Source: a virus (lineage: Duplodnaviria; Heunggongvirae; Uroviricota; Caudoviricetes). From it: a DNA stretch of 64,000 nucleotides. A program made the position numbers and the translations under genes. Location: the IMG/VR virus record IMGVR_UViG_2711768037_000005, positions 3,040-67,039 of that record. One strand, 5' to 3'. The first letter of the stretch is position 1, and each line of letters opens with the position of its first letter. The notes under the pieces were generated by a model that had not been told where the DNA came from, searched no databases, and saw nothing but the letters and a program-made list of their open reading frames with translations. Positions 2,022 through 56,238 of this stretch are shown here, piece after piece.

Positions 2022-3362
2022 ATGACAGAACTTTGCCATACAGGACGCGGGCTGTCCGAAGAATTTGATGAAGATTTTCAGAACAGATTGACGGCCTATT
2101 TTTGTCGTGATCACGAGTTTCTTACTCGTGCGGGAGATCTTGTTGTGCCTAGCCAATTTGCCAATGCGGCCAATGCCATATTGGTTAATATGGTTTCGGG
2201 CTATTATCGTATGTACAAGAGCGCGCCCTCTTCATCTGCAATTCTGGATATGCTTAAGCGTGCGAAACGCGATAAGACTATCCGTGAGGAACTATTCGCC
2301 GATGTTGTTGCTGCGTTTAAGCGCATTCTTGCAGAAAAATTGTCCGATACCTCGTACATGGTTGACCAGGTATCAACCTTCGCAAAAAGCGTAGCGTTTG
2401 ATGATGCTCTGATTAAGGCTGCTGAACTGAAAGAGAAAGGCGACTTTCAGGGGGCGATGGCAATCATGGCCAAGGTTCAGCAGATTGGATCGAACGAAGC
2501 GACCGGAATCTATGACTACTACACCTCCGCAAGTGAGCGATTGAAAGCGCGTGAATATGAGGCTTCAGAGGAGTATGTGCCAAACAGCATTACAACTGGA
2601 CTCCCTCTGCTCGATAGGTTGCTGTACCAAAAAGGCTGGGCGAAGCGTGAAATGGTGCTCTTCATGGGGTTCGCTAAATCCGGTAAATCGACCGCAATGG
2701 GTGAGTTTTCCATAAACGCAACGCTTGCTGGCTACAATGTTCTGTATCTCTCGCTGGAGGTTCACACCAACATTTTGTCCGACCGTTTTGATGCAAGATT
2801 GTCGGAGACGGAAATGTCCAAGTTGGTGGAACGGCGCGATGAAGTTCATCGTAAGTTGGCAGAGTTGGGAGCCTCTAAGGGGATTGGTAGTTTGTGGGTT
2901 GTTGAGCGTCCGTCAGGAAGTATGTCACCGGCAGATCTGGACCGTATGCTTAACAGTATGAAAGCCAATGGCATGGTGCCTGACATGGTTGTTGTCGACT
3001 ACGCAGATTTGATGCGTGCCAGTTATGACCTTCGTGATGATCGCGCCAACATTCGTAGTATCTACACCGATTTACGTGCTCTTTATGACAAGCATAACGT
3101 TGCTGGGATCACGGCATCGCAGACAAACCGTGAAGGTGGCGCGTCAGAAGTTGCCACAATGATGCACGCTGCTGACAACATCGAAAAAGTACGTATTGCT
3201 GACCTGGTAATAACGATCAATAAAACCGAAGAAGAAGAAGCGAAAGGAGAGGCTCGTCTCTACTTTGCCGGTTCACGTAACCAGCAGGGAGGGATCAGCA
3301 TTCGCGTTAAACAAAACCTCGAACAAATGCGCTTCATTCAGCGAATCTTAGACGTTACCTAA
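2022..3362 (+). CDS. DnaB-family replicative helicase (RecA-fold C-terminal domain)
   Basis: 446 aa; Walker A GFAKSGKST followed by LYLSLEV (DnaB 'SLEM'-like), Walker B-like MVVVDYADL; immediately upstream of primase; conserved AAAGGAAAGCACATG initiation region. Confidence 0.7.
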   Translation: MTELCHTGRGLSEEFDEDFQNRLTAYFCRDHEFLTRAGDLVVPSQFANAANAILVNMVSGYYRMYKSAPSSSAILDMLKRAKRDKTIREELFADVVAAFKRILAEKLSDTSYMVDQVSTFAKSVAFDDALIKAAELKEKGDFQGAMAIMAKVQQIGSNEATGIYDYYTSASERLKAREYEASEEYVPNSITTGLPLLDRLLYQKGWAKREMVLFMGFAKSGKSTAMGEFSINATLAGYNVLYLSLEVHTNILSDRFDARLSETEMSKLVERRDEVHRKLAELGASKGIGSLWVVERPSGSMSPADLDRMLNSMKANGMVPDMVVVDYADLMRASYDLRDDRANIRSIYTDLRALYDKHNVAGITASQTNREGGASEVATMMHAADNIEKVRIADLVITINKTEEEEAKGEARLYFAGSRNQQGGISIRVKQNLEQMRFIQRILDVT

Positions 3363-47163: not shown

Positions 47164-47769
47164 TTGATAAAGAAGATGATTGCAGCCGAAAAAATCAAAA
47201 AGCGAAAGCGCGACAACTCTCTTCGTGACCTCTGGAGAACACCTGACTGGCTGTTTAATGCCATTCAACGTTATCTGGGAGTGACATTTGATGTTGACGT
47301 TGCCTGCAATAAGGACAATGCAAAGCTGCCTATTTTCATAGGCGTTGAGCGCGATGCTTTGAAATCTGAATGGGGGCAGCCAGGTACAATTGCCTTCCTC
47401 AATCCACCCTACTCCAAAATTTCCCCCTGGATTGATGCGGCTATACGTGAGCAGGCTCGCGGAGTTACAACAGTGATGCTAATTCCTCAATCCCTCGATA
47501 CAAAGTGGTATGAGCGTGCAACAGAGTGTGCGAATGAGACGATTATTCTGTCTGGTGGCCGCGTAGCGTTTGTCGAGCCTGACGTCAATCTGGGTCAGGT
47601 AGAAGTAAACATCAACCCCGGTGGCAGTATGCTCGTTGTTTTTCGCGGATTCTGTCAGGACGCTGGGCACTCTATAAGCAAGATCCCTTTGGACGTCATG
47701 AAAAGTCTGGGAGGGTATGATCCTGCGAATGTGATCAGGAAAAAAAGACCATCAAAGAAGGCAGCTTAG
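47164..47769 (+). CDS. dam: phage-type DNA N6-adenine methyltransferase (Dam-like)
   Basis: 201 aa; catalytic NPPYS motif (FLNPPYSKISPW) with WRTPDW motif upstream; typical small phage Dam. Confidence 0.75.
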   Translation: MIKKMIAAEKIKKRKRDNSLRDLWRTPDWLFNAIQRYLGVTFDVDVACNKDNAKLPIFIGVERDALKSEWGQPGTIAFLNPPYSKISPWIDAAIREQARGVTTVMLIPQSLDTKWYERATECANETIILSGGRVAFVEPDVNLGQVEVNINPGGSMLVVFRGFCQDAGHSISKIPLDVMKSLGGYDPANVIRKKRPSKKAA

Positions 47770-48703: not shown

Positions 48704-48728
48704 AACACGCACGCGTGTGCGCACGCGC
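48704..48728. other. 25-bp alternating pyrimidine-purine tract (ACACGCACGCGTGTGCGCACGCGCG), Z-DNA-prone, in rnhA upstream region
   Basis: strict Py-Pu alternation read directly; GC-rich; partly palindromic around ACGCGT. Confidence 0.6.
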
Positions 48729-48768
48729 GAGGAAAAAAATCGGCGCGGCGCTTGATTCAGGAGTTTAT

Positions 48769-49359
48769 ATGACGACGAAGACACCAGCCCGATCGCAAGC
48801 AAAAACTCGCAAAAAAGCCAAAAACAAAAATTCTCCCCGCACCAATCCCACAACGCCTGTCGTAGAGTTCAATCCCCAGCTGAAAACCGTGAAAATCTTC
48901 AGTGATGGCTCTTGCCTTAAAAATCCGGGTGGCCCGGGCGGTTACGGTATCGTTCTTCAGTATCGTGGAGAGGAACGCGAGTTCTCAGATGGTTTTCATA
49001 GCACCACCAATAACCGCATGGAGATGATGGGGGCACTTATCGGGCTGGAGCGTTTGAAATATCCATGCAACGTTATTTTGCACTCTGATAGCCAGTATCT
49101 GAAAAACGGCATGACACAGTGGATGAAATGGTGGAAACGCAATGGATGGATGACTTCTGACAAAAAACCGGTAAAGAATGTTGATCTGTGGAAGCGTCTG
49201 GATGAGGCCGCAAGTCGACATAATGTTCGCTGGAAGTGGGTTAAAGGTCACGCCGGGCATCGTGAAAATGAAATATGTGATCGACTCGCGAAGATCGCAG
49301 CTTTTTCAGCAGCAGATATGCCTCACAAGAAAGATATTGGTTTTGTTTATAACAAGTAG
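48769..49359 (+). CDS. rnhA: ribonuclease HI
   Basis: core [26 protein letters not shown]...[16 protein letters not shown]...[15 protein letters not shown]...[20 protein letters not shown] collinear with E. coli RNase HI; basic N-terminal extension; start at ATG 48769 with RBS AGGAG (ORF track extends to 48715). Confidence 0.85.
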
Positions 49360-50293: not shown

Positions 50294-50722
50294 ATGTTAG
50301 GTTTCTTCAAAAAGAAAACTCGTAAAGCTGTTATCGAAGTTAAAAAAATGGAGAACCGTGATGCGGTTGAAGCAACCGTGTGGGGCGCGTACATGATCTC
50401 CTATTCAGACGGCACATGTGATGCAAAAGAAATTGCCATTCTTGAGAAGACAATTTCTGCTCTGCCTGAGTTTTCTCCGTTTGCAGGTGAGATTGCCCAG
50501 ATGAGCGCAAACATTCGCTCTCAATACGAAGCATCACCACGCCGAGCTAATGCACAGGCTTTACGTGAGCTGGCTGATGTATCCGGGACCAATGATGCAG
50601 TAGATGTTCTGTGTCTGTGCATTGATATTGCCGATCAGGATGGTATTGGCGAACAAGAGGAGCTGGTGCTGAAAAAGATTGCCCAGGCACTTCAGTTGTC
50701 GCTGGATGCTTATCTCCAATGA
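50294..50722 (+). CDS. TerB-like domain protein
   Basis: 142 aa; all-helical with acidic patches (ISYSDGTCDAKEIAILEK ... DIADQDGIGEQEELVLKKIA) resembling the TerB fold; tentative. Confidence 0.4.
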   Translation: MLGFFKKKTRKAVIEVKKMENRDAVEATVWGAYMISYSDGTCDAKEIAILEKTISALPEFSPFAGEIAQMSANIRSQYEASPRRANAQALRELADVSGTNDAVDVLCLCIDIADQDGIGEQEELVLKKIAQALQLSLDAYLQ

Positions 50723-51640: not shown

Positions 51641-51922
51641 ATGGCATACGGTACAGGGATCTACAATAATAAGGGAGTTAACGTTACTGGCTTCCTTACT
51701 CCTATTTTTTTTCTTGATCGATTTACAACCACGTCAGGCTCTAAGACTTACCCAAATCCACCACCTGGCAAATCATTACATGCCGTGTGCTCATTGATGC
51801 CTTTAAATAACGATAACCATGTAAATATACCTACACCAACTATCAATATTAACGGCAATACAGTCAGTTGGTCAAATTTATACAAGGGACTTGGATCTTA
51901 TATATATACATATTGGGGATAA
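51641..51922 (+). CDS. hypothetical protein (AT-rich island)
   Basis: 93 aa ORF; strongly AT-rich codon usage unlike neighbours. Confidence 0.4.
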   Translation: MAYGTGIYNNKGVNVTGFLTPIFFLDRFTTTSGSKTYPNPPPGKSLHAVCSLMPLNNDNHVNIPTPTININGNTVSWSNLYKGLGSYIYTYWG

Positions 51923-51928
51923 CAATAA

Positions 51929-52542
51929 TGTTCGGGATGTCAATTACTCAGTCAAATGGTAATGTGTGGATGAGTCCAGAATTTACACCGCAAAATTTGA
52001 TTAATAGGGGGACAATGTCCACGTCTAAAGGTTCTGTTTTTAAGACTTCAATACCGTCAAACAAATCATGTTTTTTCTTTATAAAAAGCAGTAATAAGGC
52101 GAATATGATGTTCGTTCATGAATTTAGAGATGGGTATAATGCTCTCAGACTGAATCAGGTTGGAGGAAACCCCGGAACGATAACAGTTTATGCTTTTTCT
52201 GATATGGTGTTACCACATTCAGGATATGGTATTGCCATGTATAATCGTGCAGGTGAAATGGTATATCACGGTGAGATGATGCCTCTTGATGCAGAGATTA
52301 TCACTATTACAAATCCTCAATTTACCATAAATATGGGATACCCGTGTGCGATAATGCCTGCAATGGTTGGAGTATATAACTACAGACGAACACCTTACGA
52401 CAGACCTGTATACGTAACAATGACAGGCGCAACGGGAAACCAAATATATAATGGTGAATGGTATTCAAGTAATGTTACATGGGATGTAAAAAAACTATAT
52501 ACAAATAAAGTCCTGGTTATAAATACATCCAAGTATGATTAG
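51929..52542 (+). CDS. hypothetical protein (AT-rich island)
   Basis: start set at ATG 51929 just after previous stop with RBS GGGGA (ORF track extends to 51868); Asn/Tyr/Thr/Gly-rich, beta-rich composition. Confidence 0.45.
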
Positions 52543-52645
52543 TCAATGCCTTTATTTTAAGTATTGCCTGTTAATTTCTATTTAGCACCTTTTTATTTTT
52601 GAAATAATTGCATCATTAAACAAATCATTTCTTAATGGTGCAATT

Positions 52646-54331
52646 ATGAATACAGCCCTTTCCATCATGGACGATGCCAGCTCAAACACTGCTATCGACT
52701 ATCGACAGGAAATGAACGTCATCCACGAAATTGTGGCCGAGTGCGAGAAAGAGATCTCCTTCATGTATCAGGTACACGACTTCGTTTATGGCGATGAACG
52801 CCACAACATGATTAATCGCCTGCTTCGACTAAACCACCGACCAGATGAAGATCGCTCACGTTTGAATCGAGTCTGGCTGGATAACGTCGATCTGGAATGG
52901 GTGAAACAGAATATTTGGGCCGAGTACTGGAGGAAGGTCACGGACATGACTAACGTTTTGCTGATCATGCCAGCTTCCCGTCGAGATGAGTGGCGCGAGC
53001 AGTTTATAGAGGGCAAACAGGAAGTCACCAAAACTGACAGAACAGGCTACCAGATGAAGGTTAAAGAGTTCGTTGGTGTACCGGAGTTCAAAGCAGAAAC
53101 GGTCATACCCACGATGCTTAATTTGCTGAATGACAGGCACAAATATCTCTCTGAGCGCGTGTATGGCTTGTTTAAGGCGCTGAGTCCTGCGCACAAGACA
53201 AATAAGACAAACGGTTTCAGCGAGCGGCTGATAATCGCTGACTGCATTTCTGATTTCTGGCGGGACAGCGTTAGCGTGAACTATCGCAAAGAGGACTACA
53301 TCGACGATCTGCGTGTCTTGCTTCATTTCTTCGCGCACAAAGAATTTATTACCATCAACCGCACTGCTGAGGTGTTATCAGCTGCGTATCGGGCAAACGA
53401 CTGCCAGACCGGTGACTGGATGAACGTCGATGGAAATCTGATGCGCGTGAAGATGTTCAAGAACGGCAACGTTCACTTTGAAATACATCCTGACGTGGCT
53501 TGGAAGTTGAATGAGGTGCTGGCTTACAGTATGCCTGCTGCAATCCCCGCGCCATGCCGAACTGCGCCAAAAACACGGGCACCAAAGCAGTTCGGGTTAA
53601 TCCAGAAGACGATCTCCGTGCCGGTTCGCACTGCGCTTCGTGACGGGCGATTAAGCAAAGACAAAGGCGTATGGTACTTCTCTGATTCAGCTCTCCAGAA
53701 GTCGCAGATGGAAGAGCTTGAGCGCACACTGAGCTTCATTGGCGGCGTGCAGGAGAAAAAGCACTGGCAGTTCCCGTATGAGATCGACCATACGCTAAAT
53801 ACGATTGTGGCTACCGGTTTAATACCGGATACAAAATCACACCAGTTCTACCCTACCCCACGCTTGATTGCTGAGTACGTTGCCAGAGCCACTGAATTGA
53901 AGCCTGGTGAGAAGCTGCTTGAGCCTCACGCCGGACGTGGGGATCTTCTGGCCTATATTAACGCCGATCTGGAAGATGTTACCTGTATAGAAATCGCACC
54001 TCTCTTCGCTGATATCCTGCGTGGAAAAGGGTATACGAACACGATTTGCTGCGACTTCATAAAGTGGTCTGAGGACAACGCAGGTTATCAGTTCGACAAA
54101 ATCGTTATGAACCCGCCGTACTCGCTTGGTCGTCATAGAGTGCACACACTGGCTGCGCTGGGGCATCTGAAAGTCGGCGGGCGTCTTGTAGCAGTATTGC
54201 CGGGCACTGCGCCAATACTGGACTGGATGACGATGGATAATTACGTTTATGCCAGAGGGAAGTCGTTTACCAACGAGTTTGAAGACACAGGGATCACAGT
54301 CAGCGTATACGTTTTCAAACGCGTTAAATAA
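52646..54331 (+). CDS. DNA methyltransferase-like protein: N-terminal ~430-aa unknown domain + C-terminal N6-adenine MTase-like catalytic domain
   Basis: C-terminal motifs in order FYPTP (motif X-like), LLEPHAGRGDL (SAM-binding motif I-like), IVMNPPYSLG (motif IV). Confidence 0.5.
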   Translation: MNTALSIMDDASSNTAIDYRQEMNVIHEIVAECEKEISFMYQVHDFVYGDERHNMINRLLRLNHRPDEDRSRLNRVWLDNVDLEWVKQNIWAEYWRKVTDMTNVLLIMPASRRDEWREQFIEGKQEVTKTDRTGYQMKVKEFVGVPEFKAETVIPTMLNLLNDRHKYLSERVYGLFKALSPAHKTNKTNGFSERLIIADCISDFWRDSVSVNYRKEDYIDDLRVLLHFFAHKEFITINRTAEVLSAAYRANDCQTGDWMNVDGNLMRVKMFKNGNVHFEIHPDVAWKLNEVLAYSMPAAIPAPCRTAPKTRAPKQFGLIQKTISVPVRTALRDGRLSKDKGVWYFSDSALQKSQMEELERTLSFIGGVQEKKHWQFPYEIDHTLNTIVATGLIPDTKSHQFYPTPRLIAEYVARATELKPGEKLLEPHAGRGDLLAYINADLEDVTCIEIAPLFADILRGKGYTNTICCDFIKWSEDNAGYQFDKIVMNPPYSLGRHRVHTLAALGHLKVGGRLVAVLPGTAPILDWMTMDNYVYARGKSFTNEFEDTGITVSVYVFKRVK

Positions 54332-54392: not shown

Positions 54393-55097
54393 ATGAACAA
54401 CCTCCAGTTAGAGCATTTTAACGTCACAGGCCATTCTGATTTTCCTTTCAAGTTTACATTGAAAGGTTATGCAGAGGATGCGGTAGGCCAGATCATTATT
54501 GATAAAGGCATCGTTAAGTTTGAGGGGGATTTTGATGAATCCGCGAAAACATTCATAGACTTCGTTGCCAAACGTTGGAGCGAGCAATGGAAAAACCTGG
54601 AAAAGCGCGCCAATGAGTTTGATCGGTTCATGGATGCAATGGATGCAGCAAAAGAGGCTCTTGATGCCGGGACTCCGTTAGATCTGGAGTCACTTTTCAA
54701 CGGCGAAGTGGCCTCTGCGATGTTCGCCACCATGTTCGCGGGTGAGTTCGTCCGCAGCGGTGCCAAAAACTACCTTGAGCTGGATTACAACGTCCCTGCA
54801 ATTGGCGATTTCGTCGTTACCATCCAACGCAAAGAAGGTAAGACGCCAGGTGAACGCGTCGCAGAGCTTGAGGCCGTTGTGGATCAGCGTAACGGAGAGT
54901 GTGACCGTTTGATCAACGAGCTTCATGCACTTCGGGAAGAAAGAATATGCGCGGGTAGTAATACACGTAATGCAGCGGATATCTACTTCCAGTTAGTTGA
55001 GGAATGCCAGATTCCACCAGGTGGCTCTCTTGTCGATTACGTAAGACATTTAATGGCGGAAGTTAGCTCCAGCCATAAAGATGGTGAGGTGCGCTGA
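54393..55097 (+). CDS. hypothetical protein
   Basis: 234 aa ORF after motif-A palindrome and GAGAAAAACACATG. Confidence 0.5.
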   Translation: MNNLQLEHFNVTGHSDFPFKFTLKGYAEDAVGQIIIDKGIVKFEGDFDESAKTFIDFVAKRWSEQWKNLEKRANEFDRFMDAMDAAKEALDAGTPLDLESLFNGEVASAMFATMFAGEFVRSGAKNYLELDYNVPAIGDFVVTIQRKEGKTPGERVAELEAVVDQRNGECDRLINELHALREERICAGSNTRNAADIYFQLVEECQIPPGGSLVDYVRHLMAEVSSSHKDGEVR

Positions 55098-55477
55098 TGT
55101 TTGGCATTGATGCACAGCGTATAGCAGCTTTTGCAAAAAGCCCTCTTGATAATCTCTTGTCTCGTAGTGAGCAAATGGCGCTGGCAAGGCTTTTTCTTCA
55201 CATTCAAAAACAGGCAGACATTTTCAATAACATGCCTGATCAACCTATTCTGGATGGTCACATCCAGATGGTCATTAACAGTCATGAGAAAGGCTGGGCT
55301 GCAATCGTCCCCTGCACAATTACATACAAGTTGGCGAAAGAGGTTCAAGAGTTTCGAAAAGCCAGTGTCGAATCGGAGTCTACCAAAGCCGCAATAAACA
55401 CTCTTATTCGCATGGGGTTCACATGGAACGGTGGGGCCTACTGGCAAGCACCTCACCCCATTTTATCCGGCAATTAG
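55097..55477 (+). CDS. hypothetical protein
   Basis: 126 aa, start overlaps previous stop. Confidence 0.45.
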   Translation: MFGIDAQRIAAFAKSPLDNLLSRSEQMALARLFLHIQKQADIFNNMPDQPILDGHIQMVINSHEKGWAAIVPCTITYKLAKEVQEFRKASVESESTKAAINTLIRMGFTWNGGAYWQAPHPILSGN

Positions 55478-55596: not shown

Positions 55597-56238
55597 ATGT
55601 CTAGTATTTCCGAAGCACATATGTTCGCCGCTGGCGCTCATGGTGGCGTTGGTCAGAAAAGAAAATATACCGGCGAAGACTACATCAACCACCCGGTTGC
55701 TGTCCGAGATATTGTTGCATTGCATGACGGAACCGTGGAGATGCAGATCGCGGCGCTTCTGCATGATGTGGTCGAAGACACCAATGTAACCATAGAGATG
55801 GTTCGTGATCACTTCGGTGAGCGCGTAGCTGAAATGGTTCAGGCTCTGACCAACATTGCAAGGTCAGAAGACGGCAATCGAATACAGCGTTTCATCATCA
55901 ATGTCCGGGAGCTGGAGCAAAATCTCGACATGCAGACGCGCATGATCAAGCTGGCTGACCTGCTCGACAATACCTCTTCTATTGTGAGTCGCGATCCTGA
56001 GTTTTCAGCTATCTACCTTGCAGAGAAAGAGCTGATGCTGGACGTACTTTTTAACGGGAAGGAGATTGGTGCCAACGCTGATGTTGTCGAGTACATGGAG
56101 AGGATAGGTATAGAACACCCGTTGTTATTAAGCGCAAAGGCGAAAGTCACTGAAGGTATTGCGCTTCTGAAACCGGTACACATCAAACGTTATGAAAAAC
56201 ACAAATCGCTGATCTGGAGCGCGTGGGAGGCTGCATGA
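55597..56238 (+). CDS. HD-domain phosphohydrolase, SpoT/RelA-hydrolase-like (small alarmone hydrolase candidate)
   Basis: 213 aa; HPVAVRDIVA...AALLHDVVEDT matches the H...HD motif of (p)ppGpp hydrolase HD domains; no synthetase domain. Confidence 0.55.
   Translation: MSSISEAHMFAAGAHGGVGQKRKYTGEDYINHPVAVRDIVALHDGTVEMQIAALLHDVVEDTNVTIEMVRDHFGERVAEMVQALTNIARSEDGNRIQRFIINVRELEQNLDMQTRMIKLADLLDNTSSIVSRDPEFSAIYLAEKELMLDVLFNGKEIGANADVVEYMERIGIEHPLLLSAKAKVTEGIALLKPVHIKRYEKHKSLIWSAWEAA

Follow-up and report, generated by a model that had tools for sequence, protein, structure and literature searches.

Protection against restriction is a known role of orphan methylases, both in phages and in the leading regions of plasmids (PMC11541004, PMC7736820). 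M.EcoGIX and M.BceJIII, two orphan N6-methyladenine (m6A) methylases of mobile elements that have no restriction partner, are single-strand-specific enzymes encoded in plasmid leading regions and protect the entering plasmid from restriction (Fomenkov et al. 2020, PMC7736820). Methylase modules are also a known hub of polyvalent proteins; within these they are assigned to the DNA adenine methylases of the EcoKI/TaqI family (Iyer et al. 2017, PMC5512222), and the methylase-helicase dyad of phage P1 DarB is of this kind. In addition, the leading-region families tabulated by Samuel and Burstein (2024, PMC11541004, supplementary file 3) include two YdiA families, of 2171 and 551 members, which rank among the largest uncharacterised ones and are entered as 'Uncharacterized; DUF4942; Methyltransferase'. 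The gene described here lies on a stretch of 64,000 nucleotides (the window; positions 3,040 to 67,039 of the IMG/VR virus record IMGVR_UViG_2711768037_000005) that derives from an Escherichia coli phage-plasmid of the SSU5/pHCM2 type. The open reading frame (ORF) at positions 52646-54331, on the plus strand like its parts and the candidate promoter given below, starts with ATG and encodes 561 amino acids (aa) followed by a stop codon. Its product probably acts as an orphan, S-adenosylmethionine (SAM)-dependent N6-adenine DNA methyltransferase with which the phage-plasmid protects itself against host restriction.

The C-terminal 166 residues of the protein (aa 396-561, positions 53831-54328) are, as judged from their motifs, a complete and intact N6-adenine methylase core of the class I Rossmann-fold, SAM-dependent type, in the gamma (EcoKI/TaqI-like) motif order. 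Motifs X, I, II, III and IV follow one another in linear order and without interruption. Three of them, FYPTP, EPHAGRGD and NPPYS, had been picked out in a sequence-only reading of the window, and they are indeed found in that order at aa 401-405, 426-433 and 489-493, with no insertion between them; that reading had likewise seen no obvious target-recognition domain between the motifs. Motif X (FYPTP, 53846-53860) is placed on the helix preceding the core, motif I (EPHAGRGD, 53921-53944) corresponds to the SAM-binding loop, and motif IV (NPPYS, 54110-54124) is the catalytic N6-adenine motif. Family conservation was measured over 151 representatives of clusters at 50% identity. Residues Q400, Y402, P403 and T404 of motif X are 91-99% conserved, E426, P427, A429, G430 and G432 of motif I 97-100%, and N489, P490 and P491 99-100%, position 492 being either Y or F. 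The acidic residue E449 (53990-53992), which we take to be motif II, as in class I methylases generally, is 96% conserved, and the DF pair of motif III (aa 470-471, 54053-54058) is 98-99% conserved. The catalytic motifs are thus kept across 151 distant relatives, and their alignment gives no sign of disruption.

In the gamma-class enzymes whose structures have been solved, such as M.TaqI, M.BseCI and CamA, a target-recognition domain is found at the C-terminus, whereas the extra domains of the 561-aa protein are N-terminal and unlike theirs. The chain stops 69 aa past motif IV, and in the AlphaFold2 (AF2) model these residues make up the last strands of the core. Because the chain ends there, an M.TaqI-like C-terminal recognition domain is lacking. 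M.EcoGIX and M.BceJIII can be regarded as functional analogues, but they belong to the beta class, with a DPPY motif and without DUF4942, while the 561-aa protein shows the gamma order and NPPY. Membership of M.EcoGIX in the same family was rejected on account of its beta class and DPPY motif, and they are not homologous beyond the fold they have in common.

Sequence comparison points instead to the methylase module of giant anti-restriction proteins of the DarB type, to which the core appears related within the same broad clade. The DarB dyad of P1 falls into the same EcoKI/TaqI-like group and carries the matching motifs YxTP, EPSAGxG and N(P/V)PF. The hidden Markov model (HMM) of the family matches, more distantly, the methylase part of P1 DarB (aa 91-185) with an E-value of 1.4e-9 and, more strongly, polyvalent proteins of 3000-3750 aa with E-values of 1e-30 to 1e-37, and a tblastn search with the C-terminal 234 aa leads to phage genes annotated PLxRFG or 'DarB-like antirestriction'. 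The matches to the HMM of the family core comprise DUF4942 fusions of about 550 aa, small methylases of 250-400 aa, and the middle of giant proteins of 3000-3750 aa. Compared with the DarB dyad, the 561-aa protein is devoid of the SF2/SNF2 helicase and of LPD36 (no Pfam match), has DUF4942 as its N-terminal partner instead, and shows no sign of virion packaging. LPD36 was also considered for residues 306-395 and rejected, as there is no Pfam match and the motif found there is IGGV, not GxG[GAS]. Separately, ORFs of 3000-3750 aa with the same methylase module near their middle were seen at eight loci, in Marinobacterium, Dyella, Endozoicomonas, Marinomonas, a Clostridia metagenome-assembled genome (MAG) and others; some of them extend past the end of the locus, and they are presumably polyvalent proteins of a conjugative element or phage.

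The 561-aa gene is a methylase gene without a partner, carried by a mobile element. A type II or IIG restriction-modification system would include a nuclease, either as a cognate gene or as a fused domain, and neither is present; no nuclease or defence partner was found among the neighbours, and a PADLOC scan of ten neighbouring proteins of the window gave no match to any model. The best-scoring defence-database model for the protein itself is mad2 of MADS (PADLOC PDLC04134), which covers the catalytic core only. A MADS locus was excluded, since the same ten neighbours give no PADLOC match and the other mad genes are absent. Across 32 chromosomal loci of the family, no conserved neighbour was found, and an operon partner was rejected for this reason. 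Because the motifs are intact, no restriction partner lies nearby and the genomic contexts are phage and plasmid early regions, an orphan methylase is the best reading of the gene. The sequence-only reading had proposed an orphan anti-restriction methylase with an unusual specificity domain; the first half of this proposal is the best-supported reading, while the specificity domain is doubtful, as discussed below. In the proposed mechanism, the enzyme would methylate the DNA of the element during replication, and progeny phage or newly established plasmid copies would thereby escape host restriction. It might work alongside the small Dam-family enzyme encoded 5 kb upstream. DUF4942, which is mildly basic, and the variable basic segment 306-395 may engage the nucleic-acid substrate or bring the acidic core to it, although such a role of DUF4942 is much less certain than the protective methylase function.

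The 561-aa ORF is a real gene under purifying selection, which acts on every part of it. Its whole-gene ratio of nonsynonymous to synonymous substitutions (dN/dS) is 0.09-0.10 against the SSU5 and Kluyvera orthologues. At the DNA level the gene is 98-99.5% identical to its counterparts in the E. coli phage-plasmids PhiR41_1 and Cyrano and in the 109-kb plasmid of O104:H4 2009EL-2050, and its orthologue in Salmonella phage SSU5 is gp095 (89% nucleotide identity). Orthologues whose nucleotide sequences are 80-99% identical were found in 555 plasmid and 11 phage records. The range of the orthologues also takes in Klebsiella, Enterobacter, Citrobacter, Cronobacter, Xenorhabdus, Providencia and Morganella. 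Among 5426 complete E. coli genomes, 251 carry the gene, nearly always on a plasmid. The 561-aa protein is labelled 'DUF4942 domain-containing protein' in RefSeq, PHROG 6263 ('DNA methyltransferase') matches it from end to end (3.5e-298), and the orthologue on S. Typhi pHCM2 bears the name 'YdiA'. The gene is therefore of a common and ordinary kind, already catalogued with thousands of database copies, and not novel. Beyond the close orthologues, an HMMER scan of 1.84 billion cluster representatives returned 7170 matches, 364 of them below 1e-30. The best 150 of those matches are nearly all 500-600 aa long and aligned over residues ~90-557, and all ten of the matches that were checked show DUF4942 followed by a weak methylase match. 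The DUF4942-methylase architecture is found in at least 364 sequence clusters, with carriers that include prophages, phages and IncHI2 plasmids, and family loci were found in Serratia, Pseudomonas, Noviherbaspirillum, Hydrogenophaga, Halomonas, Methyloversatilis, Shewanella and others.

The N-terminal part had been described from the sequence alone as a novel domain of some 430 unassigned residues. Its length has to be corrected to about 395-400 aa before the first methylase motif, and its supposed novelty gives way to Pfam DUF4942 and a homologue of YdiA. The Pfam match (PF13708) covers aa 130-295 and model positions 25-187 of 190, with 73.1 bits against a cut-off of 25. According to profile comparison, the whole of aa ~83-305 (52892-53560) is homologous to YdiA, hhalign against the stand-alone protein giving probabilities of 99.4-99.5% and E-values of 1.5e-22 (IncL/M) and 4.5e-22 (IncI1). 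The homologues are the YdiA/DUF4942 proteins of the leading regions of IncI1 and IncL/M pOXA-48 plasmids and of CP4-like islands (L0010). YdiA differs from the 561-aa protein in being only about 285 aa long, without a methylase domain, and the two are only 18-22% identical, yet they have the pattern LS..(H/Y).TN, DDL, G.xH, LN and P..(I/L)P in common. The core signature of the domain is LSPAHKTN (aa 179-186, 53180-53203), in which L179, S180, H183, T185 and N186 are ~100% conserved in the fused family, while YdiA keeps L, S, T and N but has Y in place of H. The residues common to both, L179, S180, T185, N186, D221, L222, G274, H277, N289, P297 and P301, form no evident catalytic set.

A tblastn search with residues 82-312 reached more than 5000 plasmids, 3900 of them conjugative, and the matches fall into two classes. 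The first consists of IncHI2 plasmids, which encode a full-length relative of 563 aa (33% identity) beside a Dam-family methylase; on these plasmids the Dam-family gene (locus L084, 3144-3956) is ~1.8 kb from the DUF4942-methylase gene. The second consists of IncI1 and IncL/M (pOXA-48-type) plasmids, which encode a stand-alone protein of 282-286 aa. In IncI1, the gene for this stand-alone YdiA is found beside oriT/nikA and near ArdA and PsiA; at locus L083 (5722-6570) it is ~650 bp from nikA, with one small ORF of the opposite strand in between. In the IncL/M leading region it lies near an antirestriction gene, ssb, Hha and DUF1380, and at the pOXA-48-type locus L082 (1850-2710) it is downstream of a DGQHR-domain gene. 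YdiA of IncI1 and pOXA-48-type resistance plasmids adjoins oriT or sits amid the ArdA, KlcA, Ssb and PsiB genes. YdiA and the gene of the phage-plasmid are alike in lying amid establishment and anti-restriction genes of mobile elements, but YdiA belongs to a conjugative leading region whereas the 561-aa gene is carried by a replicon typed as non-mobilizable and is part of the phage early region, outside any conjugative leading region.

No part of the protein is more constrained than DUF4942. Within the family, mean pairwise identity is 45.5% for DUF4942, 43.2% for the methylase core and 28% for the segment 306-395, and among close orthologues the dN/dS of DUF4942 is 0.04 against 0.10 for the core, so that the domain is under stronger selection than the methylase to which it is fused. 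The family median isoelectric point (pI) is 8.85 for DUF4942, which is mildly basic, and 5.96 for the acidic core. It is doubtful that DUF4942 is a classical specificity domain, because it is conserved at least as well as the core, has a fold unlike known target-recognition domains and occurs without a methylase in thousands of plasmids. Since DUF4942 is conserved like the catalytic core, the members of the family probably share one short or relaxed target and do not have many specificities. The variable basic segment between DUF4942 and the core (aa 306-395, 53561-53830; pI 9.4), predicted to form small alpha/beta units, is a candidate sequence-reading element.

Searches for relatives of the DUF4942 fold gave little. 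A sequence search of the PDB with the single protein and with the DUF4942 profile returned nothing under an E-value of 0.1. Among viral models, Foldseek matched nothing but three uncharacterised proteins (247-308 aa), two of which are named as proteins of Tenacibaculum phages, and a search of a word-indexed protein collection with the DUF4942-alignment profile returned mostly fragments and revealed no other architectures. A beta-beta-alpha (His-Me finger) reading of residues 262-295 (DG...NGNxHxExHP...N) was rejected, as it has no structural match and E279, H281 and D262 are not kept in YdiA.

The protective methylase function assigned to the gene has to be set against several of these observations. 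Structure comparison shows no resemblance of the DUF4942 fold to known DNA-binding or target-recognition domains. The domain also occurs methylase-free in the more than 5000 plasmids mentioned above; because it has no known DNA-binding fold and exists without a methylase, its engagement of DNA is an inference. A full-text literature search found no functional study of the family and no methylation, substrate or target-motif data for any member, the SSU5 and pHCM2 methylases included. Finally, orphan methylases of the M.EcoGIX type are silent in laboratory culture (PMC7736820). All of this weighs against the proposed function. In favour of a nucleic-acid-engaging role of DUF4942, it can be said that the domain is mildly basic and that the acidic core has no other partner for holding nucleic acid.

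The distribution of the stand-alone protein bears on a different explanation, in which DUF4942/YdiA is an autonomous anti-defence or establishment module and the methylase a second, independent activity fused to it. DUF4942 might, for example, bind a host factor or DNA that is entering or being replicated, and the protein as a whole would resemble a small polyvalent protein. The fusion would then indicate that YdiA takes part in the same conflict, namely escape from restriction or from DNA sensing, and is not a specificity domain. Such a bivalent protein would account for the stand-alone YdiA amid anti-restriction genes of IncI1 and IncL/M leading regions, for the matches in thousands of mostly conjugative plasmids, for the two large YdiA families tabulated in PMC11541004 and for the strong constraint on DUF4942. 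It is also consistent with the role of methylase modules as a hub of polyvalent proteins (PMC5512222) and with the table of the SRL island, in which a DUF4942 protein comes after the YeeU/YeeV toxin-antitoxin genes, YeeW and a DUF957 gene, downstream of a RadC-like gene (PMC6980539). However, no activity has been reported for YdiA, a literature search on DUF4942, PF13708 and YdiA having found no functional study; its fold has no informative match, the conserved residues make no obvious catalytic set, and the acidic catalytic core would still require a nucleic-acid holder. This explanation is rather unlikely as an account of the whole protein.

A bolder reading, of rather low probability, takes DUF4942/YdiA to be a module for establishment or anti-defence that works autonomously and whose fold is still missing from the solved structures; the fusion, here and in hundreds of relatives, would serve as a natural 'Rosetta stone' tying YdiA to a DNA adenine methylation pathway. 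If so, YdiA might, for example, place or retain a methylase on DNA that has just entered or is being replicated, or shield such DNA, and the family would consist of low-specificity protective methylases targeted by DUF4942 and not of sequence-specific enzymes. Phages and plasmids routinely carry orphan methylases, and in this respect the gene is ordinary. Its value is that of a lead: the fusion to an intact adenine methylase hints at the role of YdiA, an abundant and uncharacterised leading-region gene of resistance plasmids. SSU5-type phage-plasmids carry resistance genes in Enterobacteriaceae, and methylation marks bear on their host range.

The surroundings of the gene are relevant to a further explanation, that of an epigenetic regulator. 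In this case, the enzyme would mark sites of the phage-plasmid that control replication, packaging or the lysis-lysogeny switch, like the Dam sites of P1, whose record annotates such sites in the regulatory regions of cre and kilA. The gene order around the 561-aa gene is that of SSU5: an AAA ATPase, an exonuclease, a small adenine methylase, RNase H, the DUF4942-methylase and an HD-domain protein. The position in an early and replication region among RNase H, exonuclease, Dam and HD-domain genes would suit a regulator, as would the conservation across the SSU5 group, from Escherichia to Xenorhabdus and Providencia, and the uniform conservation of the non-catalytic domain, which fits one fixed target. 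Yet the family is also found in unrelated lambdoid prophages, in Pseudomonas and Aeromonas phages and in IncHI2 plasmids, which replicate and package their DNA by different systems. At prophage loci its neighbours are early genes typical of prophages and include YdaS/YdaT, a DnaC-like protein, Q antiterminator, YqaJ, a lambda-type integrase and a second methylase, and in Aeromonas phages the family member lies between Ant and NinG. Moreover, family members often sit beside several other methylases, which resembles an anti-restriction set. In Pseudomonas phage MR15, a 543-aa member annotated 'restriction alleviation' has other methylases on its flanks. In the window, the small Dam-like enzyme that the sequence-only reading had mentioned is present as a separate gene at 47164-47769 (PF05869, 2.4e-37), ~5 kb upstream of the DUF4942-methylase. 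The Dam-family genes here and in IncHI2 plasmids, together with the methylases flanking the MR15 copy, look like a recurring multi-methylase set. A regulatory function of the gene is accordingly improbable.

The model scores of the core concern a function in RNA modification. An RNA adenine methyltransferase could act on ribosomal RNA (rRNA), transfer RNA or transcripts of the phage and might, for example, change translation or overcome a defence that targets RNA. Similarity in structure to the rRNA adenine methyltransferases (Erm/KsgA, METTL5) does exist but is confined to the common core. The rRNA methylase models match weakly (Erm/KsgA ~1e-3) and far under their cut-offs, with 12.9 bits against 24 for RrnaAD, 18 against 350 for Erm37 and 16.4 against 171 for ksgA. 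DNA methylase models score much better (PADLOC mad2, 6e-15 over aa 395-523; MTase_II, 2.5e-10). The module is also common to DarB-like proteins, which are tied to DNA restriction. The pattern QFYPTP ... EPxAGxG is that of EcoKI/TaqI DNA methylases (see also PMC5512222), and an RNA substrate is very unlikely. That the gene encodes a methylase fold that has lost catalysis and now serves for binding is scarcely credible, since nothing specific speaks for it beyond the inactivity of some orphan methylase homologues, and the SAM-binding and catalytic residues are all intact and near-invariant in a core whose dN/dS is 0.10. The methylase-derived protein with a different role that had been suggested from the sequence finds no support, as the SAM-binding and catalytic motifs are all kept. 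The protective orphan methylase thus remains the preferred explanation of the gene.

The first 82 residues of the protein (52646-52891) make up an acidic helical segment (pI 4.9) that is its least conserved part, with a family mean pairwise identity of 21% and a dN/dS of 0.24-0.26. The AF2 model places helices at residues 20-45 and 50-62 and has low pLDDT (the model's per-residue confidence score) at residues 1-16. Within the DUF4942 region, SSU5-group proteins have a beta-hairpin insertion at aa 121-140 (53006-53065; predicted strands 124-130 and 136-142) that is missing in ~78% of the wider family. In two distant members, the reading frame contains a single in-frame stop, in a Sulfuricella MAG (L010, 2058-3704) and in Geminicoccus (L013, 5692-7575); one of these stops falls within DUF4942 and the other between DUF4942 and the methylase. 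The interrupted members may be pseudogenes, sequencing errors or natural split forms.

Just upstream of the gene, the window contains an AT-rich insert of two genes (51641-52542, 36-39% GC), as the sequence-only reading had noted. The insert is the exception to the SSU5 gene order, since SSU5 has an anti-repressor and a hypothetical gene in its place; because SSU5 carries other genes at that spot, 51641-52542 represents a variable cargo slot. The two genes match PHROG 557 ('outer membrane protein') and PHROG 425 ('membrane associated protein', moron category), and the GC content climbs from that of the insert to 48-52% within the 561-aa gene. The 103-nt AT-rich gap upstream of the start codon contains, by consensus scan, a weak sigma-70-like candidate promoter (52599-52628; TTGAAA, 18 nt, AATCAT). 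The scan for promoters and terminators around the gene gave nothing beyond the expectation from shuffled sequence, and this candidate is a lead only. Among the flanking genes are those of RNase H (48715-49359), a TerB-family protein (50294-50722) and an HD_4 phosphohydrolase (55597-56238). Immediately downstream (54393-55477) are genes of 234 and 126 aa, which match only PHROGs without an assigned function. Several small genes seem to be common to the early regions of phage-plasmids and to conjugative leading regions; a DUF1380 protein is encoded both in the SSU5 early region (locus L001, 13903-14139) and in the pOXA-48 leading region (locus L082, 4185-4595).

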